From the sequence record HE978309: a stretch of 64,000 bases of DNA; one strand, written 5' to 3'. Below are positions 16,437-35,245 of this stretch, one piece after another. Within the stretch, counting starts at the first letter, position 1. The number at the start of each line of letters is the position of its first letter. The translations under genes and the position numbers were made by a program. The DNA is from Enterobacteria phage GEC-3S. Below the pieces are notes generated by a model. That model did not search any database and was not told where the DNA came from. It saw nothing but the letters and a program-made list of their open reading frames with translations.

Positions 16437-17257
16437 TTAGTCACCTCACCGAAAATTGTAAATTGTCTACGATTCTCATCGCCGAAAGATTCTACTACGT
16501 CGTTTACCTTGACGCAAGTCCCGCGCGGTAAAATTACTTCACATTCGCAAGGGTTCCATGCAATTGATCCAACAACAAAACCTTTATGATCTTTTACGTC
16601 AATTACCCATGATACATTACAAGAATGTTGCATCTTTCCGGTCATGGATTCATATCGATTCTCACAATAAAGGCTAGTGCTATTTGAAAGCCAGCCTCCA
16701 AAGATGATTGGTGTCATGCTGGTCGATACAAAGTTTTTAAAGGTAAACTCCTTATCTTCAATAATACGCTCTATTGTCTGAATGTCAAGATGTTGACCGC
16801 GATAAAGAGTACCGTTTAACTTTTCGGTTTTATCCATGACACAATCCATCAAATCAACAATCTCTGATATCTCATCGGTCATGTCTTCTTCCCCTAAGAG
16901 AGCACCATTTACCCATTCGTATTGTTCAGACACATAATCACAGATTGCATTATATTCTGCTGGGGTTATGTTGTTATGTTTGTAATGTTTGAATACATTA
17001 TCTCCAAAGTCTTCGGAGTGTACTTCATACATCACATTAATGATTTTCTTGACAAATCCATAATCTTGTGTCTCGCGCTCAAGGAAGCGGATAACCTTCA
17101 CATAATCATCAAAGTTAATCTGATCGCTGATCATCTCAGTGATCATGTAACCATTAATCCCCTCAATGTCATATGTTTCGATGTAATTATCCATACGTTC
17201 CATCATTGATTCGCGTGATTCTTCTGAAAGACGAAAATCCTGTAATTTCTTGAACAT
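16433..17257 (-). CDS. Alt-like ADP-ribosyltransferase paralog (R-S-E class)
   Basis: TLYRGQ (Arg), NFVSTSMTP (STS), ECEVILPRG (ExE) motifs, matching Alt C-terminal catalytic motifs. Confidence 0.7.
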   Translation of the reverse strand: MFKKLQDFRLSEESRESMMERMDNYIETYDIEGINGYMITEMISDQINFDDYVKVIRFLERETQDYGFVKKIINVMYEVHSEDFGDNVFKHYKHNNITPAEYNAICDYVSEQYEWVNGALLGEEDMTDEISEIVDLMDCVMDKTEKLNGTLYRGQHLDIQTIERIIEDKEFTFKNFVSTSMTPIIFGGWLSNSTSLYCENRYESMTGKMQHSCNVSWVIDVKDHKGFVVGSIAWNPCECEVILPRGTCVKVNDVVESFGDENRRQFTIFGEVTK

Positions 17258-17335: not shown

Positions 17336-19387
17336 TTACATTTTAAATTTATCTGGCATTGCGTCTACAGATACCAGATCAGCGATAAGCTGACGTAGAG
17401 TTGCCTTATCTGCTTTCTTACGTTCGGTTTTAGCTTCGCTAATGAAGCTGGAGAAAGACAGGTCAGAAGCAGGTTTAACAACACCCTCACGGATGAATGC
17501 ATCACCGTCCGCGATCATCTCGCCAGATTCTTGTAATGCTGCCAGTTCACTTTTGTTCATAATATGTGCCTCAATGTAATAAGTTTCTTGTGAATCCGTA
17601 GATGCCGTAGCACGAGTTACCGTATCAAAGGATAACACAACACCGCGAGGAAGTAAAATCTCGCATTCTTTGTAAGCAAATGCTTTGTTACCTACTGGCA
17701 ATACAGGGATGTTTTCCGCGCCAGCAATGGAGAAAGCAACATTAGCGCCACCTTCACCGCGAGATCCAGCCATAGAATCTACCCCAGCAACGGCACTAGC
17801 CACGTTTGCATTCCAGCCGCCAAAAATGTTAGGTGCAAGGGAAGTGCTCACGTAGTTTTTAAAGTAAAACGCTTTTTGCTTACGTGCAGTTTCCCACATT
17901 TGAGACCGGAAGTCCATACCACGATACAGAATAGTACCCGGATCAAGTTTAACGCCATAGTTAGAGAAGGCATTATCCAGTGCATCGCACATCTTGACCA
18001 ATTCTTCTGGATCTGCGATTCCCTCAAACTCTTCCAGCTTGCGATCAGTTAGGAAGTTGTTCATATTGATGTATGCTGCATCGGCATATTCGCTCAACAC
18101 AAAACCTTCCGCGCCCGGCAGATCAAGATCAATATCTGCCATCATTTCACCCATGTTGCTAGCAATTGCTTCAAACATACCGGAAGCAACATTACGAAGG
18201 GCATCGGTTTTAATCTGGGTGATATGACTACGCAGCATTTCAGCTTTTACATCTGCTGGCATAGACTGGTCTACTCGATCCATTGCCAGGGCGGTGATCT
18301 TGTTTTCGAATACTTCCTCGCTCATGATTTCTTTTAAGCGTTTGATTGATGCTGCGATAACTTCCGCAGACAACGGATCATATTGATCCTGAACTTTTAC
18401 CAGTTCGCTTACTGCGTATTTTGCATCGGCTTCGCTTTCAAAAATAGTACGCATGAAACCATAGCGAGTGATAATATCACTTGTCCAGTCATTCAGAGAA
18501 CGGGCGGTTGAACGTTCTAAGGCTTGACGGTCAATCAGAGTATTAAACTGTTTCTTAGGTTCTGCTTCGGTGATATCTTCTTCCGGTTTAAGATTAATTT
18601 TTTCTGGATGATTCACATAGTCGCTGTTATAGGTCGCTTGAGTTTTCAGCATTTCTTCTTTAGTCAAACGAGATTTAGCCGCTACGCGTTGTTCTGCTTC
18701 CGCGTTTCGTTCTTCTTCTGACACAAGACTAGCCGCATATGCCTCATCTTTAGTCAGAGATTCACCAGTAGCCTTAGATACCCAGCGATCACCTAAATCA
18801 CTTTCTACTTTAGTGAACAAGGATTCATCAAGTTTAATCCCTTTAATCTTATCAATCGCCATCCCGCGACGCTTGACAACAACTAAAGCGATCTTTTTGC
18901 TGGTCATTACTTCCTGCTGGAATACTTCAAACTTCGGTGTACGACGCACCAAACGCTCTATAACGCGCTTAACCAGTTCGGTCTTACCTTTCATGCGGGA
19001 TACGTTAAAACGGAACATAACAGCGTCTAATTGCGCTTTACGGGCTGTTTCCATAACCACATCAAACGCACTTGCCATAACTGCAATCGGGTTATCGCCT
19101 AGACCATTTTTAAGCTGTACAATACGACCGCTTTTGTTCATTTCGCACAGTACAACATGTGCGGTCTTGTCGCCCATACGAATGATTTTAGGTGTTTTGT
19201 TGGTGAAGTTACAAAGACGGACAATCACATCTTTATCGCGTGTCTGTACTGCAAAAAGCTGTTTAGGATTCTGCTTAGGCTTTAAGCACTGTACCGGAGC
19301 AATACTGCCAAAGTTTTCTTCCTCTTCCGTCAACAGCCATTTCTCGAAAGATTCAATCATTAGATCGTCGATTTCTAAGTTAAACAT
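17336..19387 (-). CDS. alt: Alt ADP-ribosyltransferase
   Basis: 683 aa (T4 Alt 682 aa), T4 position next to gene 54; ILYRGMDFR, NYVSTSLAP, YKECEILLPRG motifs. Confidence 0.85.
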   Translation of the reverse strand: MFNLEIDDLMIESFEKWLLTEEEENFGSIAPVQCLKPKQNPKQLFAVQTRDKDVIVRLCNFTNKTPKIIRMGDKTAHVVLCEMNKSGRIVQLKNGLGDNPIAVMASAFDVVMETARKAQLDAVMFRFNVSRMKGKTELVKRVIERLVRRTPKFEVFQQEVMTSKKIALVVVKRRGMAIDKIKGIKLDESLFTKVESDLGDRWVSKATGESLTKDEAYAASLVSEEERNAEAEQRVAAKSRLTKEEMLKTQATYNSDYVNHPEKINLKPEEDITEAEPKKQFNTLIDRQALERSTARSLNDWTSDIITRYGFMRTIFESEADAKYAVSELVKVQDQYDPLSAEVIAASIKRLKEIMSEEVFENKITALAMDRVDQSMPADVKAEMLRSHITQIKTDALRNVASGMFEAIASNMGEMMADIDLDLPGAEGFVLSEYADAAYINMNNFLTDRKLEEFEGIADPEELVKMCDALDNAFSNYGVKLDPGTILYRGMDFRSQMWETARKQKAFYFKNYVSTSLAPNIFGGWNANVASAVAGVDSMAGSRGEGGANVAFSIAGAENIPVLPVGNKAFAYKECEILLPRGVVLSFDTVTRATASTDSQETYYIEAHIMNKSELAALQESGEMIADGDAFIREGVVKPASDLSFSSFISEAKTERKKADKATLRQLIADLVSVDAMPDKFKM

Positions 19388-19427
19388 TTTATATCCTCTA
19401 GTTGATAACCTATAAACCTATATTTAT

Positions 19428-19455
19428 GAAAAAGGGGCTTAACGCCCCCTTTTAT
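19428..19455. terminator. Hairpin terminator between small early gene and alt
   Basis: AAAAA-GGGGC-TTAA-CGCCCC-TTTTA. Confidence 0.6.
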
Positions 19456-19667
19456 TATAATGCACCATCGAGCAATTGCTCTAAGGTGTATCCTGAATAG
19501 TCTTTTTCAATCAGGGTATATTTTCCTACTCGTTTAATACAACCGCGCATTTCCACGTATTCTGTGTAGTTGATGGTACGAGTTGTTCCATCTTCCAGTA
19601 ATGCAGTACCGATTTCGTTAATGCGGTCATAAGTTACGTCGGTAATGATGATTTCGATGTTAGCCAT
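19455..19667 (-). CDS. Hypothetical early protein (70 aa)
   Basis: ORF preceded by GGAG RBS and own sigma70-like promoter. Confidence 0.55.
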   Translation of the reverse strand: MANIEIIITDVTYDRINEIGTALLEDGTTRTINYTEYVEMRGCIKRVGKYTLIEKDYSGYTLEQLLDGAL

Positions 19668-19701
19668 TTGATACTCCTTAGTAGTTCGTTTCGGTATGGG
19701 T

Positions 19702-19733
19702 GTATTATGATATACACCCTCTGTTATGTCAAC
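19702..19733 (-). promoter_or_regulatory. Sigma70-like early promoter
   Basis: Minus strand AAAAAGTTGTTGACA ... CATAAT, conserved leader CCGAAACGAA plus GGAG RBS. Confidence 0.55.
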
Positions 19734-19739
19734 AACTTT

Positions 19740-19919
19740 TTAGAACATTTTTGAAATTAATTTTGCTTTGATTTCGCAGAGAACACCTAAAGATTTCTCG
19801 TCACCCGCTTTTGCTGCTTCTGATTGCATTTTTGAAATGGCTTCAATGTCAGTGCAATTATAAGCCGCTTGAACTTTAGCGATTGCGATGATTGCCGATT
19901 CGATGGTTAAGTGTTTCAT
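19740..19919 (-). CDS. Hypothetical early protein (59 aa)
   Basis: MKHLTIESAIIAIAKVQAAYNCTDIEAISKMQ...; RBS GGAGAATCAA; below ORF-track cutoff. Confidence 0.45.
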   Translation of the reverse strand: MKHLTIESAIIAIAKVQAAYNCTDIEAISKMQSEAAKAGDEKSLGVLCEIKAKLISKMF

Positions 19920-19951
19920 GTTTGATTCTCCTTTCGTTTCGGTATGTGTGC

Positions 19952-19981
19952 ATTATAGGGGATCACCGATCCCCTGTCAAC
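19952..19981 (-). promoter_or_regulatory. Sigma70-like early promoter with palindromic spacer
   Basis: TTGACA - GGGGATCGGTGATCCCC (17 nt) - TATAAT on minus strand. Confidence 0.6.
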
Positions 19982-19987
19982 AACTTT

Positions 19988-20506
19988 TTAGTTATTTTTT
20001 AATTGCTCATCTTGCAATAGGGAAATCACATGCTGGCGATGTTCTTCCGATTGAGGAACACCGAAAAAGTTTGTTTTGTAGAAATACTCTAATCGGTCTT
20101 CTCGTGTGCTCTCTTCCATCATGATCGCGGGTAGTCCGAGATTTCGGAAACGTCGCTTTTCTGCTGGCGTAAAATCACTGTAATACAACATAGAATCATC
20201 ATTACCCGCAATGCTAAATTCATCCTTCATAAAGGAGAATATTGCGTTTAAACGCTGTTTACCGTCCACGATTTCGATCTCATAGCGAGATCCATCATCA
20301 ATCTTAGCCATTGCGATAGCACCAACCGGAAAATCATTAATCAGGTTTTCGATAAACATACGTTTGTTTTCGGTGTCCCATACCAAAGGACGCTGATAAT
20401 CTGGGTTCATGTTGATATAGCCATCTTCTAACCACGCCTCATAAACAGAGATGACAAAGTTTTTAGTATTGGTATAGTAACGGCGTTTAGGCGTTAAACG
20501 GTTCAT
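19988..20506 (-). CDS. DUF262 / ParB-like nuclease-domain protein
   Basis: NPDYQRPLVWD ... IVDGKQRLNAI resembles DUF262 DGQQR-type motif; ATG at 20506 with GGAG RBS, adjacent to stop of upstream gene. Confidence 0.6.
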   Translation of the reverse strand: MNRLTPKRRYYTNTKNFVISVYEAWLEDGYINMNPDYQRPLVWDTENKRMFIENLINDFPVGAIAMAKIDDGSRYEIEIVDGKQRLNAIFSFMKDEFSIAGNDDSMLYYSDFTPAEKRRFRNLGLPAIMMEESTREDRLEYFYKTNFFGVPQSEEHRQHVISLLQDEQLKNN

Positions 20507-20507
20507 G

Positions 20508-20840
20508 TTATAGTCTCCTGAATGGATCATCACGTAAATCAATATCTTTTAAGAACTCATCCCATGAATGGCGGATATTGTTCTTAATTCTCCAGATAAG
20601 CGCAGGGATTGAACGCTCTCCCATCTGGAAGTAGGGATCATATGATCCGTATGCCCAATATGCTACTACAATTCCACAATCAGCGCAATAGTATTCTATT
20701 TCACTTGCTGGCGACCAAATTCCATCAATATGATCGGTGATCCTGCTTTCGATGTTATGGCTATGGCAATCAGGGCAACGGATGCAATGACCTTGTTTAT
20801 CGTAATTTGACGTTAGCGAATACTTAAACAATCTCATCAT
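20508..20840 (-). CDS. Cys/His zinc-ribbon-like protein (110 aa)
   Basis: CIRCPDCHSH ... CADCG; ATGA overlap with upstream methyltransferase-like gene. Confidence 0.55.
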   Translation of the reverse strand: MMRLFKYSLTSNYDKQGHCIRCPDCHSHNIESRITDHIDGIWSPASEIEYYCADCGIVVAYWAYGSYDPYFQMGERSIPALIWRIKNNIRHSWDEFLKDIDLRDDPFRRL

Positions 20841-21553
20841 AGATCCTTATTGGCTTCAAATACTGCCTTTGCGAATCCTCGCGGGGTAAGTGACCTGATA
20901 GTCTTTGTTCTGGTTCCTTTCCCGCCTAGCTTAGAATGCTGTTTACTGTACCCTTTATTAATATGCAACGGTTTCTTTTCTGGCATTATAAAGCCTTGTC
21001 CGGTCCATAAGCAAGTCTTTTTCGGGTACATATCACGGGCGGCGATATACTCAGGAAACGTAGGATGTTTATCATCTTCCGGCAAATAACCGCCATATTC
21101 CCACGGATGGAACATGTAATCAGGCTTACGCCACATACTAGAGATAACGCTTACAGGATTCTCTATCATGTAGGGAACTCCTAGCCATTCACCCAAATAA
21201 GCGGTTATTTTAGCTGCCCGTACATCATGAACTTGAATCAACGGTCCTTGTTCTCGTTTCTTTCGTTCAAAGTGTGCAGCGCCACTAACAGCTAAATTGG
21301 TACACGGTGGGAATGCAAAGATAATATCCGGTTTCCCCCATTCAAGGTCCATTGCTCTTTCCAGCCAGTTCAAATCAATCCAGGTGTTTACATAGGTAAT
21401 GTTTGGATGTTCAAATCTGGTATTATACTTTTTGTATGTACCGTGGTCGGCGTCATCCGCATTAAAGCAGACTACCTTATGACCTGCTTTAGCCCATTCT
21501 AGACCCATTATCCCCGATCCATCAAAGTTGCAGAATATTAATTTTTGTTTCAT
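20837..21553 (-). CDS. Compact DNA (cytosine-5)-methyltransferase-like protein
   Basis: Motif I FCNFDGSGIMG, motif IV FPPCTNLAVSG, motif VI MIENP, C-terminal RSLTPRGFAKA in canonical C5-MTase order; only 238 aa. Confidence 0.6.
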   Translation of the reverse strand: MKQKLIFCNFDGSGIMGLEWAKAGHKVVCFNADDADHGTYKKYNTRFEHPNITYVNTWIDLNWLERAMDLEWGKPDIIFAFPPCTNLAVSGAAHFERKKREQGPLIQVHDVRAAKITAYLGEWLGVPYMIENPVSVISSMWRKPDYMFHPWEYGGYLPEDDKHPTFPEYIAARDMYPKKTCLWTGQGFIMPEKKPLHINKGYSKQHSKLGGKGTRTKTIRSLTPRGFAKAVFEANKDL

Positions 21554-21795
21554 ATACGACCCTTTAACCCAGCACAGATTTTAGTCGGTTCTTTACCGTG
21601 CCACATTAAGTAAAGTCCGTTAATGCGACCTTGTTTTGTGTGTGATTCTTTTCTGATCTTCTTATAGTGTCGTGCTTCCTCAACTGATTGTTTAGAATAC
21701 CAATCATAAAGGAAGAGGCACAAAGGCCAACCATTAGCGGCCTTAATGCAGTTATTAAGAAATTCCTTATTGCGTTTAATTAATTTTCTTTTCAC
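21550..21795 (-). CDS. Hypothetical basic protein (81 aa), GTG start
   Basis: GTGA overlap with upstream gene and ATGA overlap with downstream gene. Confidence 0.45.
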   Translation of the reverse strand: MKRKLIKRNKEFLNNCIKAANGWPLCLFLYDWYSKQSVEEARHYKKIRKESHTKQGRINGLYLMWHGKEPTKICAGLKGRI

Positions 21796-22043
21796 GCTGC
21801 CCCCGTTGGTTTGATAGTAACAGAATCTAAAAGACCTTTGTTAGCCAGTTCGCGGCAAGTTTTCAGATCCGCAACTTCCCAGCCAGCCGCAATCAGGTTA
21901 TCAATCAGGCTGTTAGCAACTTCTTCGCTCATGAAAGAGCACTGTTTGCCGATGGTGTAGCGTACACGCTGTAATTTCAGTTTACGGAAGCCTTTAACGT
22001 TCAGGTCTTTAGCGATTTTCTTTGCGGTTTCGATGTTAGCCAT
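21792..22043 (-). CDS. Hypothetical protein (83 aa), first gene of five-gene operon
   Basis: Own sigma70-like promoter and GGAGAATCAA RBS. Confidence 0.55.
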   Translation of the reverse strand: MANIETAKKIAKDLNVKGFRKLKLQRVRYTIGKQCSFMSEEVANSLIDNLIAAGWEVADLKTCRELANKGLLDSVTIKPTGAA

Positions 22044-22083
22044 TGTTTGATTCTCCTAAGTGGTATCTCGTCTTGATGGTTGT

Positions 22084-22113
22084 ATTGTAGGGGAGTTATC
22101 CTCCCCTGTCAAC
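22084..22113 (-). promoter_or_regulatory. Sigma70-like early promoter with palindromic spacer
   Basis: TTGACA - GGGGAGGATAACTCCCC - TACAAT on minus strand. Confidence 0.6.
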
Positions 22114-22126
22114 ACTTTTTATAAAA

Positions 22127-22294
22127 TTATTTGTTAATTTCTGGTGCGTTGCTAGGATAGTAACCTTCTTTAACTCCGAGGTATTTCGCAACCATCCCTA
22201 CAATCTTCTGTGCTACTACAATGTCAAATTTCAGATAATCTTCGCCGTAGGTTTCAATGATATATGCTTCACATGCTGCTTTAGTCTCGAACAT
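22127..22294 (-). CDS. Hypothetical early protein (55 aa); paralog of 25403..25570
   Basis: MFETKAACEAYIIETYGEDYLKFDIVVAQKIVGMVAKYLGVKEGYYPSNAPEINK; near-identical C-terminus to 25403..25570. Confidence 0.45.
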   Translation of the reverse strand: MFETKAACEAYIIETYGEDYLKFDIVVAQKIVGMVAKYLGVKEGYYPSNAPEINK

Positions 22295-22329
22295 TTTGAT
22301 TCTCCTATATTTCGTTTCGGTATGGGTGT

Positions 22330-22359
22330 ATTATAGGGGATCTCCCGATCCCCGTCAAC
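22330..22359 (-). promoter_or_regulatory. Sigma70-like early promoter with palindromic spacer
   Basis: TTGACG - GGGGATCGGGAGATCCCC - TATAAT on minus strand. Confidence 0.6.
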
Positions 22360-22372
22360 AACTTTTTTAAAA

Positions 22373-22654
22373 TTATTCGTGATTAGTTTCGATGTTGTGC
22401 ATTTTGCACCAGTTCAGCCAATCGACCAGGTCTTGATAGTTGATGCTTTTATCTGCTGCCATCGTTTTTGTCTTGATACCCATATGTGCGTTATGAGTAA
22501 GCATTTTTACAGTGAACTCAATTTTATCGCCTTTAGCTTTAACATCAACCAGTTTGGTCCACTGGCTACCAGCGCCGCGAATGTTCATGCCAACGATGTT
22601 TCCGATGTATGCTTCTTTGTTTTTCAGGATTTCGGTTGCTTTGATGAATTTCAT
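22373..22654 (-). CDS. Hypothetical early protein (93 aa)
   Basis: ORF with own promoter and GGAGAATCAAA RBS. Confidence 0.55.
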   Translation of the reverse strand: MKFIKATEILKNKEAYIGNIVGMNIRGAGSQWTKLVDVKAKGDKIEFTVKMLTHNAHMGIKTKTMAADKSINYQDLVDWLNWCKMHNIETNHE

Positions 22655-22687
22655 TTTTGATTCTCCAGTTCGTTTCGGTATGGGTGT

Positions 22688-22717
22688 ATTATGCTATGTT
22701 CTTACTTTGGTGTCAAC
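22688..22717 (-). promoter_or_regulatory. Sigma70-like early promoter
   Basis: TTGACA - 17 nt - CATAAT on minus strand. Confidence 0.55.
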
Positions 22718-22724
22718 AACTTTT

Positions 22725-22994
22725 TTAGATATTTTCAGAAATAAATTTTAAAACTTGACGTAAATGTTTCTCATCTTTGATAGTCGCCGGAAGTTCTTCT
22801 TTTACTTCCTGTGCAAGATAGATATTTCCGTTCCAAGTGAAAGATCCGTCTTCGTTTACGCGATAGCTGAACATCCACTCGCAATCATTTTCGATTTCAT
22901 ATACACATAGAAGAGTATAATCTTCAAAGCTATTGATTTCAAGGTCGAAGCCGTGACGTTTTGCAAAGTTGGTAGTGGTTTTAGTCAGTGCCAT
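22725..22994 (-). CDS. Hypothetical early protein (89 aa)
   Basis: ORF with own promoter and GGAGAATCAAA RBS. Confidence 0.55.
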   Translation of the reverse strand: MALTKTTTNFAKRHGFDLEINSFEDYTLLCVYEIENDCEWMFSYRVNEDGSFTWNGNIYLAQEVKEELPATIKDEKHLRQVLKFISENI

Positions 22995-23034
22995 TGTTTG
23001 ATTCTCCTAAGTGGTATCTCGTTTCGATGGGTGT

Positions 23035-23065
23035 ATTATGCTATAGGCGTGATCTGGTGTCAATT
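23035..23065 (-). promoter_or_regulatory. Sigma70-like early promoter
   Basis: TTGACA - 18 nt - CATAAT on minus strand. Confidence 0.5.
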
Positions 23066-23086
23066 CTTTTTTTAAATTTTATGCAA

Positions 23087-23116
23087 TAAAAAAGCCGACG
23101 CTATGGTCGGCTAATA
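23087..23116 (-). terminator. Hairpin terminator after 23120..23428
   Basis: A-run then GCCGAC-GCTATG-GTCGGC on plus strand. Confidence 0.5.
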
Positions 23117-23119
23117 AAA

Positions 23120-23428
23120 TCATTTAGACAAATAATCATTCAGTGCAATCCGGTCGGCGTATGCTGGTGTTACGTCAATCGCAATCACTTTAACGCGTGC
23201 TTTCTTGCGACCTGGGTTTTCACGTAACCAGTGCTCATGACCGTGAACATTTTTATACTGCGATGCTTCTTCGAAGGTACGGATCGGACCTGGGTAATCA
23301 GCGTAAAGGATCTCTAGATCTTCGGTGATGTAAAAATATACATCGTAATTGCTGTTCTCTAGCTTAAGCAGAGACTTTCGGAACATTGGGAGATTTTCGC
23401 GGGTAAATTCAAAGATATTATCTTTCAT
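23120..23428 (-). CDS. HxHW-motif family protein (paralog 1 of 6)
   Basis: VHGHEHWL...VKVIAIDVTPAYADRIA shared pattern with five other ORFs. Confidence 0.55.
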   Translation of the reverse strand: MKDNIFEFTRENLPMFRKSLLKLENSNYDVYFYITEDLEILYADYPGPIRTFEEASQYKNVHGHEHWLRENPGRKKARVKVIAIDVTPAYADRIALNDYLSK

Positions 23429-23452
23429 AGTATTATCCTCAATAGTTGGATG

Positions 23453-23472
23453 AAAAGGGGCGTTAACGCCCC
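23453..23472 (-). terminator. Hairpin after 23479..23766
   Basis: AAAA-GGGGCG-TTAA-CGCCCC on plus strand. Confidence 0.45.
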
Positions 23473-23478
23473 CATATA

Positions 23479-23766
23479 TTAAAACAGTCCTTCCTGTACA
23501 CCGTAGTAGAGTTCGTCGCTGATAATTTCATTAATGCGACGGTGTGCATATTCCTGATTTGCGAAGTTGTCAGCAAGTTCTATTTTAGTTTCGCCGTCAT
23601 GAGTCCATTTAGTGATAACTTTACCATCTGCAAATTTGAAGTTGAACTCTTTAGCTACTGCATCGCGTACCAGACGTGCAAACTTATTGTTGCGGATTGC
23701 ATTGTCGGTTTCGTGTGCAGCGTGAGCAAATTTGTTAACTTTCAGAGTGATAGTGATGTATGCCAT
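23479..23766 (-). CDS. Hypothetical early protein (95 aa); shares AKEFN motif with 26806..27117
   Basis: ORF with own promoter and GGAGAATCAAA RBS. Confidence 0.55.
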   Translation of the reverse strand: MAYITITLKVNKFAHAAHETDNAIRNNKFARLVRDAVAKEFNFKFADGKVITKWTHDGETKIELADNFANQEYAHRRINEIISDELYYGVQEGLF

Positions 23767-23812
23767 AATTTGATTCTCCTAGTTAGAAAGTGTATCTCGT
23801 TTCGATGGGGAT

Positions 23813-23842
23813 ATTATGCTATATCCCCGATCCGGTGTCAAC
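23813..23842 (-). promoter_or_regulatory. Sigma70-like early promoter, palindrome spanning -10
   Basis: TTGACA ... GGGGATAT-AGCATA-ATATCCCC containing CATAAT. Confidence 0.55.
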
Positions 23843-23847
23843 ACTTT

Positions 23848-24126
23848 TTATAAAATAATTTTTTGATATTTTTCTATGATGTTCGTGTAAGTCACATCAA
23901 CCGCTAGCACTGTTGCTTCGAATCCACCGTTTAGCCAATGGCTATGATCATGGTCGTGAAAGAAACCTAGACCAGTACGAAGACCTTCTTTATATTCTGC
24001 GCGTACATTCAGTTTGTCGTCGATAAACAGATAAAACCATGAATTTTTACTAGGATTGATGATACAACCTTTCAGATTAGGGAGAATATCACGACTAAGA
24101 ATAAACTTATCACCTACTTTGAACAT
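23848..24126 (-). CDS. HxHW-motif family protein (paralog 2)
   Basis: FHDHDHSHWL...TVLAVDVT; internal ATG at 24126 with GAGGA RBS. Confidence 0.55.
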   Translation of the reverse strand: MFKVGDKFILSRDILPNLKGCIINPSKNSWFYLFIDDKLNVRAEYKEGLRTGLGFFHDHDHSHWLNGGFEATVLAVDVTYTNIIEKYQKIIL

Positions 24127-24130
24127 AATA

Positions 24131-24451
24131 TTAGTCCTCACTTATAAGGTCAAACCAATTGTTTTTCGCATAATGCTTAATGCGTGCTTGATCTGCTTCC
24201 GCTGGTGATAGATTCCATGCAACCACTACAACTTCTGACGCATCGTCATCAGTTTCCGATACCCAATGATTGTGATTCATACAGTTATTTGCTATCGAGT
24301 GAGCAAATGATTTCATCACTGGAGACGTATAATCATAGTAACGGATTTTCAGATTTTCATCAACATACAAATAGATCGTATAAGGTTTATATTCAGTAAC
24401 AAGTAACAGACAGTTACGCAATTCTGGGAAAATCTTTTTAGTTAATTTCAT
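24131..24451 (-). CDS. HxHW-motif family protein (paralog 3)
   Basis: MNHNHWVSE...VVVVAWNLSPAEADQA. Confidence 0.55.
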   Translation of the reverse strand: MKLTKKIFPELRNCLLLVTEYKPYTIYLYVDENLKIRYYDYTSPVMKSFAHSIANNCMNHNHWVSETDDDASEVVVVAWNLSPAEADQARIKHYAKNNWFDLISED

Positions 24452-24653
24452 ATTCTAGTTCTCCGTAATACACGGTAATCCATTTTTCTTCATATTTTGT
24501 ATCTTTCCAGCACACAATACCGTTTACTGTGCAATCTTTGGAATTGACGAATGATTCATATTGTTCCGCATCTTCCATCATTTCATGAGCGGTCTTTTCA
24601 TCGAATATATCGCAGATCGCTTTATATGCTCGATAATCTTTAAATTTGCTCAT
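24438..24653 (-). CDS. Hypothetical small protein (71 aa); tandem paralog of 24656..24865
   Basis: Both start MSKFKDY[RK]AY; internal ATG at 24653. Confidence 0.45.
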   Translation of the reverse strand: MSKFKDYRAYKAICDIFDEKTAHEMMEDAEQYESFVNSKDCTVNGIVCWKDTKYEEKWITVYYGELEYEIN

Positions 24654-24655
24654 AA

Positions 24656-24865
24656 TTAACACCACTCAAGAGTTTTTGAAAACACATCTATCCATTGTTG
24701 AGTATATGCGGTTTCTTTCCATGATACAATACCAGTCGAATAATGGTTTTTGTTTCCAGAAAAGGACGGGCATTTTGATGCATCTTCCATCATCTTTTCG
24801 GCGAACTCTGGTTCGTATACTCGCAAGATCTGTTGATATGCTTTATAATCTTTAAACTTACTCAT
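24656..24865 (-). CDS. Hypothetical small protein (69 aa); tandem paralog of 24438..24653
   Basis: ATGA overlap with upstream gene. Confidence 0.5.
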   Translation of the reverse strand: MSKFKDYKAYQQILRVYEPEFAEKMMEDASKCPSFSGNKNHYSTGIVSWKETAYTQQWIDVFSKTLEWC

Positions 24866-25146
24866 AACAACACCACCGATACATCGTAATCATTCGCGAC
24901 CTTATCGGCTTCTTCAACCGACATAATACCTTCTGCGACAATTGGCATAGGGTGATCGTGATTCCACCAATGGTCATGTATATCAATTTCAGTTTTGCCG
25001 GAAAATGAATCATGTTTGACGTTTTTCACTTTATACCCGATGTGACCGTCGTGGTCAATAAAGATATAGTTTCCGAAAATCGGTGTCTGTAAAATCATAC
25101 CGAAAAATTTTTCTTTGTTGTTCGGGTCGAGTGTAATCATTTTCAT
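24862..25146 (-). CDS. HxHW-motif family protein (paralog 4)
   Basis: IDIHDHWWNHDH...AEGIMSVEEADKVA; AAGAGG RBS. Confidence 0.55.
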   Translation of the reverse strand: MKMITLDPNNKEKFFGMILQTPIFGNYIFIDHDGHIGYKVKNVKHDSFSGKTEIDIHDHWWNHDHPMPIVAEGIMSVEEADKVANDYDVSVVLL

Positions 25147-25158
25147 AATATATTCCTC

Positions 25159-25338
25159 TTAGAAAGGGATGGTCATTTCTTGAGCTTGTACATTCTCGTT
25201 AGGATTAAACTTCATCCAACCGATATTGTCTACCAGCATATGCACATTTTTATCATATCCTACGTGAGTAGTCAACACTAAATGTGCTTTACATTCAACG
25301 ATGATTTCCATGTACTTCTGAACTTCGATAGCTTTCAT
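25159..25338 (-). CDS. Hypothetical early protein (59 aa)
   Basis: MKAIEVQKYMEIIVECKAHLVLTTHVGYDKNVHMLVDNIGWMKF...; GGAGAATCAAA RBS; below ORF-track cutoff. Confidence 0.45.
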   Translation of the reverse strand: MKAIEVQKYMEIIVECKAHLVLTTHVGYDKNVHMLVDNIGWMKFNPNENVQAQEMTIPF

Positions 25339-25370
25339 TTTGATTCTCCGTTTGTTGTCTTGATGGGAGT

Positions 25371-25400
25371 ATCTTACTACTCCCTTTAATCATTGTCAAC
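25371..25400 (-). promoter_or_regulatory. Sigma70-like early promoter (GGGAGTA...TACTCCC palindrome around -10)
   Basis: TTGACA - 17 nt - TAAGAT; palindrome identical to copies near 35.02 and 61.85 kb. Confidence 0.5.
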
Positions 25401-25402
25401 GA

Positions 25403-25570
25403 TTATTTGTTAATTTCTGGTGCGTTGCTCGGATAGTAACCTTCTTTAACACCCAGATATTTTGCAACCATTCCGGTGATCTTCTGTGCTACTACGATAT
25501 CGAATTTCAGGTAGTCTTCACCGTGGTTTGCTACAATGTATGCTTCGCATTCTGCTTTAGTCTGGAACAT
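25403..25570 (-). CDS. Hypothetical early protein (55 aa); paralog of 22127..22294
   Basis: MFQTKAECEAYIVANHGEDYLKFDIVVAQKITGMVAKYLGVKEGYYPSNAPEINK; internal ATG of ORF-track ORF 25403..25636. Confidence 0.5.
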   Translation of the reverse strand: MFQTKAECEAYIVANHGEDYLKFDIVVAQKITGMVAKYLGVKEGYYPSNAPEINK

Positions 25571-25604
25571 TTTTGATTCTCCTATATCTCGTTGGTATGT
25601 GTGT

Positions 25605-25634
25605 AGTATAGGGGATCGGTGATCCCCTGTCAAC
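25605..25634 (-). promoter_or_regulatory. Sigma70-like early promoter with palindromic spacer
   Basis: TTGACA - GGGGATCACCGATCCCC - TATACT on minus strand. Confidence 0.6.
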
Positions 25635-25641
25635 AACTTTT

Positions 25642-25950
25642 TTATTCTTCATCTTCATTTTTATCTTTATATGCGTACTTCATAAATTTGTCTGCTACTT
25701 TGTCCGCGTTTTCAGGTTCTACGTCTGACGCTAGGACAACAGCTAGTTCGGTTTTGTCGTTTCCGTCATACCAATGATTATGAGTGTCGTTTTCTTCGAT
25801 ATAAAACGAATCATTTGGAGTTGTTCGACAATATACGTCTAAATTCCCATCGATATAAAAGATCCAATCCGAATACAAAATGATTGCTTTAGCCAGATTT
25901 TTATTGTCTCTTACAAAAGGTTCCGCGACAAATAGCTTAGTTTGTTCCAT
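25642..25950 (-). CDS. HxHW-motif family protein (paralog 5)
   Basis: NDTHNHWYDG...ELAVVLASDVEPENADKVA; ATG at 25950 with GAGGAA RBS. Confidence 0.55.
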   Translation of the reverse strand: MEQTKLFVAEPFVRDNKNLAKAIILYSDWIFYIDGNLDVYCRTTPNDSFYIEENDTHNHWYDGNDKTELAVVLASDVEPENADKVADKFMKYAYKDKNEDEE

Positions 25951-25966
25951 AATATTTTCCTCAAAA

Positions 25967-26158
25967 TTATACAGCTTCGTAAACTTCCCAATGTTCAGCG
26001 CCAACACGCTTAACGAAAAGGTTTTCTTTGATGTTATTCATAAACGTCTGGATAGATTTAATGCGGTTGGAAGGTTTCCAGTCTTCGTTGGCATTGCGGC
26101 GATACATAATAACATTACCAGTTCGCTTATATTCAGCAACCATTTTAAGATCACACAT
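25967..26158 (-). CDS. Hypothetical small protein (63 aa)
   Basis: ORF with GAGGA RBS. Confidence 0.45.
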   Translation of the reverse strand: MCDLKMVAEYKRTGNVIMYRRNANEDWKPSNRIKSIQTFMNNIKENLFVKRVGAEHWEVYEAV

Positions 26159-26215
26159 AATATTATCCTCAATTTGTGGGAGAGTATTACCCCTCCCAAT
26201 GATTGTTATGTTATA

Positions 26216-26536
26216 TCACACAAAATGGCGTGTCAATGCTTCTTTTGCGGTTCCGCTAAGACTTTCGATCTCGCCTGGCATAACATCAACCGCCAGAACT
26301 TCGACAACATCCTCGGACCCTAACCAGTGAGTATGGCCTTTGTAGAACTTGATAACCAGACTACCTTCCTCATCCCATTTAACGCTATCGCTAGCCCACC
26401 ACACATCACCGTCGATAAAGTTGATGTAAAGCACACTACGCCACATTGAATTAATTACTTTCAATACTGCGCCTTTCATCTCTTCCACGGTATGGTCTTC
26501 CATTTTGAAGACCTCACCTACCTGAACTTTTGCCAT
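26216..26536 (-). CDS. HxHW-motif family protein (paralog 6)
   Basis: YKGHTHWLGSEDVVEVLAVDVMP; GAGAGGTGA RBS. Confidence 0.55.
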   Translation of the reverse strand: MAKVQVGEVFKMEDHTVEEMKGAVLKVINSMWRSVLYINFIDGDVWWASDSVKWDEEGSLVIKFYKGHTHWLGSEDVVEVLAVDVMPGEIESLSGTAKEALTRHFV

Positions 26537-26553
26537 TTAGTCACCTCTCTTTA

Positions 26554-26733
26554 TTACATAACAATCACGCCAGCCGTTGAAAGTTGATGTTTCAACTGAG
26601 CATTTTCTGCTACCGTCAAATCAATGATTTCTTGTGACGCTGCAATCATATATCCATTGGTGATATTGTTTTGCATCAGTTCAATGGTTTCTTCGTTGTA
26701 GCGGATTTTAGCGATGATTTCGTTGAAGTTCAT
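26554..26733 (-). CDS. Hypothetical early protein (59 aa)
   Basis: MNFNEIIAKIRYNEETIELMQNNITNGYMIAASQEIIDLTVAENAQLKHQ...; GGAGAATCAATC RBS; below ORF-track cutoff. Confidence 0.45.
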   Translation of the reverse strand: MNFNEIIAKIRYNEETIELMQNNITNGYMIAASQEIIDLTVAENAQLKHQLSTAGVIVM

Positions 26734-26767
26734 GATTGATTCTCCTAGTTCGTTTCGGTATGTGTGT

Positions 26768-26798
26768 ATTATAGGGGATCTCCCGATCCCCTGTCAAC
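26768..26798 (-). promoter_or_regulatory. Sigma70-like early promoter with palindromic spacer
   Basis: TTGACA - GGGGATCGGGAGATCCCC - TATAAT on minus strand. Confidence 0.6.
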
Positions 26799-26805
26799 AA
26801 CTTTT

Positions 26806-27117
26806 TTAAAGTTTTTCCATGATAACGGTCATAATTACATCTTCTGCGCGAGCGGTCAGATTATCAGCGTCAGCATGTGGGCGGTTGGTTGTTACAGAGA
26901 TAGCACCGTTGCGCACTGGTTTGATATTGATATCAAGATGATCCGCGAAACGTTCGCCAGTTACAGAATGAATTTTGGTGTTAAATTCTTTTGCCAGTGC
27001 CTTGCGAACTTCACGAATCAGGGTAGCGTTTTTCAGTTGGTTCTCCGCGCTCATGGTCTTCTGGGTGTTCATGGTTCCGTCGAAGTCAATCATTGGCAGC
27101 GTTACGATGTATTTCAT
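26806..27117 (-). CDS. Hypothetical early protein (103 aa)
   Basis: ORF with own promoter and GGAGAATCAAA RBS. Confidence 0.55.
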   Translation of the reverse strand: MKYIVTLPMIDFDGTMNTQKTMSAENQLKNATLIREVRKALAKEFNTKIHSVTGERFADHLDINIKPVRNGAISVTTNRPHADADNLTARAEDVIMTVIMEKL

Positions 27118-27162
27118 TTTTGATTCTCCGTTTAAGAAAGTGTGTTTCGTTTTGATGTGTGT

Positions 27163-27193
27163 ATTATAAGGGGATCACCGATCCCCTGTCAAC
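27163..27193 (-). promoter_or_regulatory. Sigma70-like early promoter with palindromic spacer
   Basis: TTGACA - GGGGATCGGTGATCCCC - TATAAT on minus strand. Confidence 0.6.
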
Positions 27194-27204
27194 AACTTTT
27201 TGAA

Positions 27205-27681
27205 TTATTTTTCTTGATGCTCGCGCTCGTACTTTTCGAAATAAAATTCTACTGGCTGATCGTGGATTGAAAGCAAGCCAAAGCGTTTAGCCGCTCGCAA
27301 TCCCATATTGCGCTGAATGTACTTCTGGAAGTTCTCGCGTATACACTTACGCCAGTATTCTAAGCCCATACAGCTTTTATAAAGATTGCATTGCACACAC
27401 GCCGGATTCATGTTATCAAGTATATCATGTTCCGGTTTATGCATTCCTACAACCTTATACTTCCACGATCCATCATCATTACGGGCAATTCGTCCATTTT
27501 CATCATAGACTACCTTTGAGCGTCGCAATACTGGTTTGATATGGTCTGCGTGCCAGCGATCCCCTAGTTCCTCGCCACAATAGGCACAACGCCCACCGTA
27601 TTTCATTTTCAGGATCTGGCGTTGCTCTTTCTTTGACAATTTTTTAGGTTTAGGGGCTTTCGCCCCTTCATTATCACACAT
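27205..27681 (-). CDS. HNH homing-endonuclease-like protein
   Basis: CAYCG ... WHADHIKP ... CVQCN (HNH-type Cys/His motifs); overlaps 3' end of ligase gene by 8 nt. Confidence 0.7.
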   Translation of the reverse strand: MCDNEGAKAPKPKKLSKKEQRQILKMKYGGRCAYCGEELGDRWHADHIKPVLRRSKVVYDENGRIARNDDGSWKYKVVGMHKPEHDILDNMNPACVQCNLYKSCMGLEYWRKCIRENFQKYIQRNMGLRAAKRFGLLSIHDQPVEFYFEKYEREHQEK

Positions 27682-29170
27682 CGAATACCTCTTTTACTGT
27701 ATTTGCCGTGGTCTTGTCGTAGCGAATACGTTTGATGATCGGGAGAAATAAAGAGAACTCCGGTTCATCTTCTTTACGTGATTTGCTGCGAATGTACCCG
27801 TTGCATGTCATCTCAATGACTTTTCCGACCAGGTTATGCCGTTCAGCCCATAACATTTCTCGGTCAAGTTCATTTCGACGATCGAACGGAATTACACGTT
27901 CAGTACCATCATCACCTTTTTCGGTTGTAGTGTCGGTTAATCCCGATCCGGTGTTAGTCATCATTCGTCCGCACGCACTACGGACAGTAAAACCGCCTAC
28001 CTTATTGGGGTCTTTACTATGCGGATATACATCAACAATTTCCGCGTCGAAGTCAATAACTTCTTTAAATTTAACCTGATCTTTACTGCGACGATCTTCA
28101 AATACACCATGTAAATTTTTAAGGATAATACCTTCTAAGCCCATGTTTACATAGCGATGATATACTTCGCGAGCTTCATCGATATTGTTAACTACGGTAT
28201 TTTCGATTATCTGAACACGAGGATCGTTAAGTTCTTCAACAATCTGTTTTAGTTCTTCGAATCGATCTTTATATTGCTTCGTTGCTTTCTCGTTTCCGTA
28301 ATACACATCACGGTCGATAACATCCCAGACAGTGTAAACAATACATTGGGCTTCTTCTTTTGGAATAGTTCCTTTCAGTGATTTGTTGAGGATACCATTT
28401 CCGGTCTGACGATCTGCAACAACGGATTCTTTCACCGCTTCCGCTACTGGCGTTAATGGCATTTCCTCTTCTTCAAATATCCATGACAGAGTACCATCAT
28501 AAACGCTCTCAACGAAGTTCTGCGCTGGTGTTTGCGAAAGGGTAGGCATATATACCAATTCGCCATCTAGAACAATTCCACGGCCTCGTAGACGCTCTAA
28601 AACCGCAAACAAATCATCAAGCCCTTGATAGGTATTACCTGAGCGGGTATAGATTGCTAATGTTTCCCCGTCAATATCAGCCATACCACGAGCGCCATCG
28701 CTTTTAAGTTGTGCATACGCCGGATACTTGATATTAGAAATAGTCTTATCAGAACATGACGATGCAAGGTGGCACGGTTGCTGAGGGATCAGTTTCTTCC
28801 ATACCTTGTTTGCAGTGGTAGCGGAACAACCGCATTCCAGGTCACGATTCAGGACCATCATTGCAACTTTAGCATCATCCTCTGACAAGCAAGTCAGAGT
28901 ATCGGTAACTAGCTGTAATGCTGCGTTGCCAGTTACTTGACGCGTGGCAAGTTTATTTTTAAAGACCTGTAATGCACCGGATAAAGACAATACAGACGAA
29001 TAGCGAGATGGTTTATCGTATTTCTTTACGCCAAACGTAACCTGTTTGCAATATGCCAGATAAAAGCATTCTTTCAGCGTTTCATTGCTCGCGGATTCTT
29101 TCAGAATCTTTTCTTTCAGCGATGTTTTGTCTGTTGCTGCAAGCTGATTAATGATATTAAGAATTGACAT
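27674..29170 (-). CDS. 30: ATP-dependent DNA ligase gp30
   Basis: Aligns with T4 DNA ligase (AQLKSDGAR KxDG site; TRQVTGNAA; NRDLECG; ANKSLKGTI.KEEAQC; EGIILKN); ATG at 29170 with GAGGTG RBS. Confidence 0.93.
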   Translation of the reverse strand: MSILNIINQLAATDKTSLKEKILKESASNETLKECFYLAYCKQVTFGVKKYDKPSRYSSVLSLSGALQVFKNKLATRQVTGNAALQLVTDTLTCLSEDDAKVAMMVLNRDLECGCSATTANKVWKKLIPQQPCHLASSCSDKTISNIKYPAYAQLKSDGARGMADIDGETLAIYTRSGNTYQGLDDLFAVLERLRGRGIVLDGELVYMPTLSQTPAQNFVESVYDGTLSWIFEEEEMPLTPVAEAVKESVVADRQTGNGILNKSLKGTIPKEEAQCIVYTVWDVIDRDVYYGNEKATKQYKDRFEELKQIVEELNDPRVQIIENTVVNNIDEAREVYHRYVNMGLEGIILKNLHGVFEDRRSKDQVKFKEVIDFDAEIVDVYPHSKDPNKVGGFTVRSACGRMMTNTGSGLTDTTTEKGDDGTERVIPFDRRNELDREMLWAERHNLVGKVIEMTCNGYIRSKSRKEDEPEFSLFLPIIKRIRYDKTTANTVKEVFDV

Positions 29171-29636
29171 TTTCACCTCGTTTTGTTAAACGTTCACGAA
29201 TATCATTGAGGATACTACAAAATTCCGATTCAGTCAATATAGTCTTTAACGGATCTGTTCCACCTATACTATGACGCAATTTCTTATTTCCGGTAGCGAG
29301 TAATGCTTTACAAAATTCTGGGTTATTCCGTGCCATCGTAACAAATGCCAGATGTACCAGTCTGTAATAATGCTCACTCATTCGATGAATCGGGCGACCC
29401 TGAAAATATAGCATGTGATTCTCTATCTTTTCAGTCCTTCCGGTTCTTTTTGCTTTGCCACCGTGCATCAAAAAGATTTCTCTTTGTCTCTGGGGGTTCT
29501 TGAATCTTAATCCCTGTAAAAATCCTTCTGTGCTGTTAATATCGCAACCAAATAGACGGAATGGTCTTTTATTGAAATTACTCAATTCACCCGATGGATA
29601 AGGTCCACCCGCATAGATATCAATTTCATAAGTCAT
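29157..29636 (-). CDS. NADAR (YbiA-like) domain protein
   Basis: SNFNKRPF, STEGFLQGLRF, KALLATGNKKL...GG resemble NADAR family motifs; function inferred. Confidence 0.5.
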   Translation of the reverse strand: MTYEIDIYAGGPYPSGELSNFNKRPFRLFGCDINSTEGFLQGLRFKNPQRQREIFLMHGGKAKRTGRTEKIENHMLYFQGRPIHRMSEHYYRLVHLAFVTMARNNPEFCKALLATGNKKLRHSIGGTDPLKTILTESEFCSILNDIRERLTKRGENVNS

Positions 29637-34987: not shown

Positions 34988-35020
34988 CTTGATACTCCTT
35001 AGTTGTTTTAGTATTGGAGT

Positions 35021-35050
35021 ATCTTACTACTCCCGTGATATGCTGTCAAC
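35021..35050 (-). promoter_or_regulatory. Sigma70-like early promoter (GGGAGTA...TACTCCC palindrome around -10)
   Basis: TTGACA - 17 nt - TAAGAT. Confidence 0.5.
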
Positions 35051-35057
35051 TGCTTTT

Positions 35058-35207
35058 TTATGCAACCGCAAACATCAACATTTGAACATTCTTGGCTGTC
35101 TGGCTTTCAAAGTTCTGACATTCTTTGATAATGTCCTCTACTTTCTCTCCGGAGATCTCCGCGTAAGTTTCGATTGCCATTTTCAGTACCGCGTCAAAGT
35201 TGTTCAT
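35058..35207 (-). CDS. Hypothetical early protein (49 aa)
   Basis: MNNFDAVLKMAIETYAEISGEKVEDIIKECQNFESQTAKNVQMLMFAVA; GGAGAATCAAATG; below ORF-track cutoff. Confidence 0.45.
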   Translation of the reverse strand: MNNFDAVLKMAIETYAEISGEKVEDIIKECQNFESQTAKNVQMLMFAVA

Positions 35208-35245
35208 TTGATTCTCCTTAAAGTGTATTTCGTTTCGATGGGGGT

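Follow-up and report, generated by a model that had tools for sequence, protein, structure and literature searches.

Positions 19388-27204 of a 64,000-nucleotide stretch of Enterobacteria phage GEC-3S (sequence record HE978309; the whole stretch is called the window below, and all coordinates are its own) carry a dense array of small minus-strand genes between alt and the DNA ligase gene. We assign this array, with a probability of about 0.9, to the alt-ligase hyperplastic region of an RB49/Phi1-type Krischvirus, arranged as 11 early transcription units that are each headed by a promoter-early stem-loop (PeSL) cassette. The system is already known: PeSLs were defined in Phi1 and RB49 at this locus by Arbiol et al. 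2010, who placed the ORFan cluster containing the array in HPR3 (PMC2839356), and our analysis rediscovers that named and experimentally studied system at its type locus. As a discovery it carries little weight: work from 2010, extended in 2014, had already described the locus and its cassettes, the activity of these as promoters and terminators, and the shuffling of genes. The novelty implied by an earlier sequence-only reading of this DNA falls away with the naming and testing of the cassettes in that work; the reading itself, of a hyperplastic early-gene array, is essentially correct. What the array offers is a defined set of 24 early accessory genes of blank function, suited to anti-defence or host-takeover screens, and an opportunity for quantitative testing of the PeSL shuffling model in the many Krischvirus genomes now available, with which the small sample analysed here agrees.

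Identity and setting of the array

In a megablast search of a phage collection, Phi1 was the top match, and all 7817 bp of the array aligned to Phi1 ORF185-ORF210 at 98.8% identity. The same identity to Phi1 holds for the complete 11.8-kb span from alt to ligase. The search with 19388-27204 returned 62 matching records, and the taxonomy of all those fetched was Krischvirus. Gene order in the Phi1 annotation is 54, ORF182, ORF183 (ADP-ribosyltransferase), alt, ORF185-ORF210, ORF212 (HNH), 30 (ligase), 30.3, 31 and cd. By its high identity and synteny with RB49 and Phi1, the window is that of a Krischvirus, an RB49/Phi1-like, T4-type coliphage.

Between alt and the HNH gene and ligase lie 24 minus-strand open reading frames (ORFs) of 55-238 aa, close to the roughly 25 proposed from sequence. 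Each is annotated in Phi1, where all 24 coding sequences (CDSs) are labelled “hypothetical” save one, a “DNA methyltransferase” in RefSeq. The sequence-only reading had raised the prospect that the locus might prove conserved gene for gene, with named functions, in close relatives; in Phi1 the gene-for-gene conservation is there and the named functions are not. T4 resembles GEC-3S in its flanking genes (54, alt, 30, 30.3, 31, cd) and in the host-sigma70-dependent logic of its early transcription (PMC1524935). It differs, as had been claimed, within the alt-30 interval, which in T4 holds a single 189-bp ORF, alt.1, versus 24 in GEC-3S.

Eleven near-identical cassettes

All intergenic regions of the array were extracted on the coding strand and compared. 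This revealed 11 near-identical cassettes, located upstream of o185, o186, o190, o191, o193, o194, o198, o204, o205, o209 and o210, with the layout AAAAAGTTG-TTGACA, a 17-18-nt spacer, a TATAAT-like hexamer, ACACCCAT, a leader, GGAGAATCAA, 0-4 nt and ATG. Every cassette has TTGACA or TTGACG as its -35 element and a spacer of 17-18 nt, and the -10 element matches the consensus at 4-6 of 6 positions. An AT-rich tract of the TAAAAAAGTTG type lies upstream of the -35 element in the cassette alignment and holds the stop codon of the preceding gene. GGAG stands 6-9 nt ahead of the ATG in 11/11 cassettes; as a Shine-Dalgarno sequence it thus precedes all 11 cassette-proximal genes, versus 2 of the 13 internal genes. 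The cassettes resemble one another not only in the hexamers but also in spacer, leader and AT-rich flank, and around o191 and o205 an entire 243-bp unit is duplicated, with copies ~85% identical.

The sigma70-type promoters proposed from sequence were borne out by comparison with shuffled sequence: GTTGACA-N18-ATAAT, with at most one mismatch, occurs 14 times in the window versus 0.8 expected, and eight of these matches are in the array. The ribosome-binding site GGAGAATCAA also held up, being exact in 10 cassettes and off by one mismatch in the remaining one; with at most one mismatch allowed it gave 19 matches versus 5.6 expected. Counts so far above the shuffled expectation argue that the cassette motifs are real and far beyond chance. 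The proposed conserved leader fared less evenly. Cassette leaders are alike, but CCGAAACGAA is exact in only 5/11, and the other six carry variants such as TCGAAACGAG or TCAAGACGAG.

A profile hidden Markov model (HMM) built from the 11 cassettes recovered all of them at E values of 4e-11 to 3e-20, as expected because the same copies had trained it. Outside the array, the rest of the 64 kb yielded another 11 copies, weaker and independent, each of them on the minus strand, so that cassette density is 11 in the 7.8 kb of the array versus 11 in the remaining 56 kb. Phi1 has 52 PeSL copies, mostly in hyperplastic regions (PMC2839356). The further PeSL-like cassettes of GEC-3S lie (minus strand) at 34989-35833, 38074-38126, 42923-42976, 44138-44200 and 61836-63188, and include two groups of four, at ~35 kb and 62-63 kb, that are probably signs of further hyperplastic regions in the genome. 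Scanning the entire window for Rfam families and tRNAs gave no matches.

Transcription units and hairpins

The sequence-only reading had given most genes a promoter of their own. This has to be revised, as the 11 promoters serve 24 genes: there are seven single-gene units and four operons of 2, 4, 5 and 6 genes, in which 13 promoterless ORFs follow the preceding gene by 0-57 nt. The units and their surroundings, all on the minus strand (-), are as follows.

17336-19387 (-): alt, Alt-like RNA polymerase ADP-ribosyltransferase; flank downstream in transcription (Phi1 annotation and ORF list)
19429-19449 (-): terminator-like hairpin GGGGGCGTTAAGCCCC with T-run, separating o185 from alt; also flagged when read from the plus strand
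19455-19667 (-): unit 11, single gene o185 (70 aa); function unknown (phrog_10679); T1-like phages have weak relatives
19666-19743 (-): PeSL of o185; -35 at 19727-19732, -10 CATAAT at 19704-19709, hairpin over the -10 (-13.6 kcal/mol), GGAG at 19674-19677
19740-19919 (-): unit 10, single gene o186 (59 aa)
19918-19990 (-): PeSL of o186; TTGACA, 17-nt spacer, TATAAT (12/12 matches), GGGGATC...GATCCCC hairpin in the spacer
19988-22043 (-): unit 9, five-gene operon o190-o187, frames touching or overlapping
19988-20506 (-): o187 of unit 9, DUF262/GmrSD_N domain only
20508-20840 (-): o188 of unit 9, zinc ribbon (weak match)
20837-21553 (-): o189 of unit 9, C5-cytosine methyltransferase-like
21550-21795 (-): o189.1 of unit 9
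21792-22043 (-): o190 of unit 9
22044-22123 (-): PeSL of o190; TTGACA, 17-nt spacer, TACAAT, GGGGAGG...CTCCCC hairpin in the spacer (-19.4 kcal/mol, z -4.5)
22127-22294 (-): unit 8, single gene o191 (55 aa); o205 paralog, 87% aa identity, phrog_8009
22293-22369 (-): PeSL of o191; ORF192 is inserted at its upstream edge in RB49, FL38 and MIZ6 (PMC2839356)
22373-22654 (-): unit 7, single gene o193 (93 aa)
22653-22727 (-): PeSL of o193, the sole cassette without any hairpin (-2.0 kcal/mol, z -0.5)
22725-22994 (-): unit 6, single gene o194 (89 aa); relatives in phi92-like and T1-like phages
22996-23074 (-): PeSL of o194, no internal hairpin
23088-23112 (-): canonical intrinsic terminator AGCCGAC...GTCGGCT with T-run, just upstream of the o194 PeSL
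23120-23766 (-): unit 5, two genes, o198 and o197
23120-23428 (-): o197 of unit 5, HxHW family
23453-23473 (-): terminator-like hairpin GGGGGCGTTAACGCCCC with T-run, between o198 and o197
23479-23766 (-): o198 of unit 5, o210 paralog
23767-23852 (-): PeSL of o198; hairpin GGGGATAT...ATATCCCC over the -10
23848-25338 (-): unit 4, six-gene operon o204-o199
23848-24126 (-): o199 of unit 4, HxHW
24131-24451 (-): o200 of unit 4, HxHW
24438-24653 and 24656-24865 (-): o201 and o202 of unit 4, paralog pair, 46% identity
24862-25146 (-): o203 of unit 4, HxHW
25159-25338 (-): o204 of unit 4
25337-25408 (-): PeSL of o204; -10 TAAGAT, GGGAGTA...TACTCCC hairpin over the -10
25403-25570 (-): unit 3, single gene o205 (55 aa); o191 paralog
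25569-25644 (-): PeSL of o205; its Phi1/RB49 counterpart is PeSL206/205 (PMC2839356)
25642-26733 (-): unit 2, four-gene operon o209-o206
25642-25950 (-): o206 of unit 2, HxHW
25967-26158 (-): o207 of unit 2
26178-26197 (-): hairpin between o208 and o207
26216-26536 (-): o208 of unit 2, HxHW
26554-26733 (-): o209 of unit 2
26733-26808 (-): PeSL of o209; TTGACA, 18-nt spacer, TATAAT, hairpin in the spacer
26806-27117 (-): unit 1, single gene o210 (103 aa); o198 paralog and the ORF of the published ORF210 mini-circles (PMC2839356)
27116-27203 (-): PeSL of o210; TTGACA, 18-nt spacer, TATAAT, hairpin in the spacer; the RB49 PeSL211/210 hairpin is a strong terminator in vivo (PMC2839356)
27205-27681 (-): o212, HNH endonuclease; upstream flank, 8-nt overlap with the ligase stop
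27674-29176 (-): gene 30, ATP-dependent DNA ligase; flank (Phi1 annotation)

The sequence-only reading overlooked the part that defines the published PeSL, the hairpin inside the promoter. Nine of the 11 cassettes contain an internal 7-8-bp G+C hairpin, with free energies between -13.6 and -19.4 kcal/mol; six of these hairpins lie within the promoter spacer and three overlap the -10. Of the other two cassettes, that of o194 is closely preceded by the terminator listed above, and that of o193 is without a hairpin. Five stem sequences occur (GGGGATC, GGGGAGG, GGGTGTAT, GGGGATAT and GGGAGTA), with pairing kept in each, and the hairpin is placed differently with respect to the -10 from one cassette to the next. 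Differing stems with preserved pairing and a shifting position favour a structural role over that of a sequence-specific operator.

The hairpins at 19429-19449 and 23453-23473 are almost identical, and the former ends the array ahead of alt. Gene o197, which lacks a promoter, is positioned behind the terminator at 23453-23473. Directly downstream of alt, at 16433-17257 on the minus strand, lies a second, shorter Alt-like ADP-ribosyltransferase gene (Phi1 ORF183; phrog_15144, E 3e-198). A 147-aa ATG-initiated ORF occupies 25880-26323 on the plus strand, antisense to o206-o208. Plus-strand ORFs antisense to the array are annotated in none of the relatives compared and were taken as spurious, as this one probably is.

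Published activities and a proposed mode of action

The published PeSL consists of an AT-rich tract, sigma70-consensus -35 and -10 elements, a Gn-loop-Cn hairpin (in five positional subclasses), a Shine-Dalgarno sequence and ATG (PMC2839356). Comeau et al. 2014 restated the RB49/Phi1 consensus as TTGACA-N17-TATAAT with Gn-loop-Cn and extended PeSLs to the T4/PST and KVP40/nt-1 pairs (PMC4122927). Compared with these descriptions (PMC2839356, PMC4122927), the GEC-3S array has the same locus, ORFs, cassette parts and indel pattern, and nothing essential differs. T4-type PeSLs read TTTACW...TAYWAT (PMC4122927), in contrast to the near-perfect sigma70 consensus of the array. What we add are breakpoints in seven further genomes, the difference in GGAG use between genes next to a cassette and genes inside operons, the assignment of the ORFs to 11 units and the four paralog families; the word “paralog” is absent from the text of Arbiol et al. 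2010 (PMC2839356).

The existing literature favours early transcription from these promoters, as had been predicted. PeSL193/192 and PeSL206/205 were assayed as promoters in lacZ fusions, most clones of which were mutated in the -35 or -10; a single wild-type PeSL206/205 clone gave ~13,000 Miller units, and the activity of PeSL193/192 comes from mutated clones (PMC2839356). Early transcripts of RB49 have been 5′-mapped, as cited in PMC1524935. By itself, the PeSL211/210 hairpin lowered expression of a downstream lacZ to the same extent as the terminator rrnB T1, and inverse PCR with sequencing identified mini-circles excised by PeSL-to-PeSL crossovers around ORF192 and ORF210, the shuffling model being built on ORF192 (PMC2839356).

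In T4, cleavage by the RegB endoribonuclease is a route of early-mRNA shut-off, and GGAG is the kind of site that is cut. A regB gene is present in RB49, and RegB cleavage at the Shine-Dalgarno sequence of regB itself occurs in vivo (PMC3014915).

These elements suggest a sequence of events. Unmodified host sigma70 RNA polymerase fires the near-consensus promoters right after infection, as the literature has shown for orthologous cassettes. The G+C hairpin in or next to each promoter would terminate or attenuate read-through, as shown for one cassette and extrapolated to the rest; since such a hairpin is transcribed solely by read-through from the upstream unit, each unit would be insulated from its neighbour. 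The invariant GGAG may both give strong translation and mark early mRNAs for RegB cleavage. Finally, as the ~75-90-bp cassettes are repeated head-to-tail, homologous recombination by the phage deletes, duplicates and swaps genes between them, as the published mini-circles show and the natural indels described below support. Recombination between repeated cassettes accounts for both the variable gene content and the paralog families.

Indels among relatives and the role of recombination

We aligned the locus of eight further Krischvirus genomes (RB49, Cognac, ECD7, FL38, MIZ6, Skers, SFHK24 and E26) to the window. Gene content varied at seven places, in keeping with the proposal of a hyperplastic locus:

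19743-19921: o186 absent from Cognac and ECD7
21552-21779: o189.1 absent from E26
22365-25402: o193 through o204 absent from Cognac
22372-22377: ORF192 inserted in RB49, FL38 and MIZ6
within 23016-23111: ORF195/196 inserted in RB49 and MIZ6
about 26823-27102: o210 absent from Skers and SFHK24
27212-27221: ORF211 inserted in RB49, Cognac and E26

For six of these seven indel types the breakpoints lie in a PeSL or within ~20 nt of one, in this small sample of eight genomes. The loss of o210 in Skers and SFHK24 is the genomic counterpart of the ORF210 circle. In Cognac, the lone copy of the o191/o205 unit combines an o205-type upstream flank and leader with an o191-type CDS, which places the crossover between the leader and the CDS start, the same zone as reported for one published mini-circle (PMC2839356). 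As judged from these alignments, the indel sample supports the published model of PeSL shuffling. The inserted ORF211, between o210 and ORF212, is a homolog of a Vibrio superintegron ORF (PMC2839356).

The o190 and o194 cassettes have a repeat in common (22008-22086 vs. 22959-23037) that continues 35 nt into the CDS (MANIETAKKIAK vs. MALTKTTTNFAK), and the N-terminus of o185 is also MANIE. The shared N-terminal stretches of o185, o190 and o194 have the look of remnants left by crossovers beyond the start codon.

Several observations weigh against PeSL-headed units that are insulated by hairpins and shuffled through their cassettes. The o193 and o194 cassettes have no internal hairpin; no clean U-run follows the promoter hairpins, and a simple terminator scan did not call them. 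Experimental tests cover only three orthologous cassettes, of phages other than GEC-3S, and the suggested RegB step is drawn from motif content only. The E26 deletion of o189.1 lies within an operon, not at a PeSL, and the Cognac deletion used the 243-bp repeat that contains the CDS, indicating that any repeat, not the PeSL alone, can serve as substrate.

The last two deletions are also what would be expected if the cassettes were simply strong expression signals kept alike by selection, with recombination incidental to the highly active general recombination of T4-type phages and no dedicated mobile-cassette mechanism, and no cassette-specific recombinase was evident in the region in Pfam, NCBIfam and PHROGs family scans of the ORFs. 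We nevertheless consider this account unlikely: the similarity of the cassettes extends beyond the hexamers, cassettes bound most of the indel types, and the mini-circle crossovers were sequenced inside PeSLs (PMC2839356). It is mainly a difference in emphasis from the shuffling of PeSL-headed units; the published model leaves homologous versus site-specific exchange undecided (PMC4122927).

It is very improbable that the spacer inverted repeats are double-stranded DNA operators or Dam-sensitive sites for a protein that switches early promoters off, rather than RNA terminators: GGGGATC...GATCCCC in five spacer hairpins does put a pair of GATC sites precisely in the interval that separates the -35 from the -10, and the missing U-run and terminator call would fit, but the stems differ among cassettes with pairing retained, their shifting position relative to the -10 fits a structural role better, and the PeSL211/210 hairpin alone lowered downstream lacZ like rrnB T1 (PMC2839356).

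The five GATC-bearing spacer hairpins are at 19961-19971, 22339-22350, 25614-25624, 26777-26788 and 27173-27183. The window shows no avoidance of GATC (353 sites vs. 230 expected from base composition), and a methylation-sensitive effect on these promoters is conceivable.

Comparison with other gene arrays

Integron arrays likewise consist of tandem small ORFs separated by repeated recombination sites, from which cassettes excise as circles and reinsert. Their cassettes are usually promoterless, are read from one common promoter and need a dedicated integrase acting on attC. In the GEC-3S array, by contrast, every cassette brings a promoter with it, and there is no sign of a dedicated recombinase. 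The host-takeover module of Bacillus phage SPO1 (Stewart et al. 1998) reportedly comprises about two dozen small early genes with many strong host-sigma promoters and strong ribosome-binding sites. The phage and its sequences are unrelated to the GEC-3S array, and we know of no description of a hairpin-in-promoter cassette or of cassette-mediated shuffling in the SPO1 module.

Gene content and candidate functions

The ORFs were scanned against Pfam, NCBIfam, PHROGs and PADLOC. These profile searches, a course that the sequence-only reading had recommended, gave a name of any kind only to o187, o188 (a weak zinc-ribbon match in Pfam), o189 and o212, and left the others nameless. Each array ORF falls into a PHROGs family, annotated as “unknown function” for all but o189. 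In tblastn searches with concatenated ORFs, relatives outside Krischvirus were found, among the matches listed, only for o185, o187, o188 (weak), o189, o189.1, o191, o193, o194 and o198. In agreement with the claim that the ORFs have no T4 match, two such searches gave no Tequatrovirus record for array ORFs among the matches listed, the T4 genome itself not having been searched exhaustively. Sequence searches of the PDB with o187, o189, o194, o198 and the HxHW profile yielded no significant match.

Gene o189 matches phrog_757, “DNA methyltransferase” (E 9e-91), and has 7312 homologs of ~230 aa in many unrelated phages, some of them with PF00145. No Pfam family, PF00145 included, matched o189 itself at E<=0.01. 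The motifs FDGSG, FPPC and ENP are visible (cf. C5 motifs I FxGxG, IV PC and VI ENV); the protein is short, at 238 aa, and no target-recognition domain was identified in it. From these motifs and matches, o189 is probably a member of the C5-cytosine methyltransferase family.

The 172-aa product of o187 matches Pfam GmrSD_N (E 4e-20), residues 26-122 aligning to profile positions 5-105 of 199, and PADLOC NsnA (E 1e-20); it resembles only the N-terminal half of NsnA and PD-T4-2_A. With GmrSD and other DUF262 defence nucleases it shares the N-terminal DUF262/ParB-like domain and its DGKQR motif. The profiles of those proteins span ~360-385 positions with a C-terminal nuclease, whereas o187 corresponds to the N-terminal part and has no C-terminal DUF1524/HNH nuclease domain. 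We therefore rejected o187 as a GmrSD type IV restriction enzyme.

A role of the array in host takeover or counter-defence is plausible. That the majority of the 24 ORFs are effectors of host takeover or anti-defence, their paralogs expanded in an arms race with host immunity, we regard as possible, at somewhat less than even odds. The early promoters, the variable presence of genes among close relatives and the grouping of 12 of the 24 ORFs into paralog families all point this way; the methyltransferase-like gene could protect against restriction, and o187, lacking the C-terminal half of NsnA, PD-T4-2_A and GmrSD, could be a decoy. Against this, none of the ORFs has a match among characterised proteins of anti-defence or takeover, a literature search turned up no functional study of array ORFs, and the methyltransferase-like gene and the truncated DUF262 protein are the only functional hints among the array ORFs that bear on takeover or anti-defence.

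A 2026 paper reports that Krischvirus SAP has 5-hmdC together with glucosylated and gentiobiosylated cytosines without known pathway genes, while the 99.96%-identical TB34 is unmodified (PMC13390438). The o190-o187 operon (19988-22043, minus strand) contains the only methyltransferase-like gene seen in the array, and a tie between this operon and SAP cytosine hypermodification is a speculative lead, tempered by the unmodified state of TB34 and by the lack of any dioxygenase or glycosyltransferase in the array region.

Paralog families

The residual interest of the array lies in its uncharacterised cargo, and foremost in a family of six paralogs. The paralogs and duplicated cassette proposed by the sequence-only reading resolve into four families and the duplicated o191/o205 unit: o191/o205 (87% identical, phrog_8009), o201/o202 (46% identical, phrog_8471), o198/o210 (phrog_7474) and the six-member HxHW family, o197, o199, o200, o203, o206 and o208. 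HMMs built with one HxHW subfamily left out recovered the omitted paralog at E values of 3e-6 to 1e-15, and unrelated array ORFs scored 0.07 or worse. Conserved features are an invariant H-W, a near-invariant His before it, a Y-x-Y-I-D strand and a V-L-A-x-D-V-x-P-x-x-A-D segment.

Fold searches with the HxHW family gave no match, and no description of an HxHW effector family was found in the literature searched. A JAB/MPN metalloprotease (MPN fold with the motif E...HxH...S..D), raised by a weak PROCT match, was rejected, and the label “KOW2-KOW3 of Spt5” on one database homolog was unsupported by the fold searches. It is a doubtful proposition that the array acts as a gene nursery, in which PeSL-mediated unequal recombination amplified one small protein into six HxHW paralogs, lineage-specific and possibly metal-binding effectors diversifying against host defences.

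HxHW homologs form 86 clusters at 90% identity, of ~71-128 aa, and the long contigs among them measure 164-176 kb, the size of a Krischvirus genome. At 50% identity there are 18 clusters among 1.84 billion proteins, one of them a two-domain fusion and another a weak 737-aa outlier. The family is very small and occurs almost only in Krischvirus-like contigs. In one metagenomic relative (203 aa), two HxHW domains are fused in tandem.

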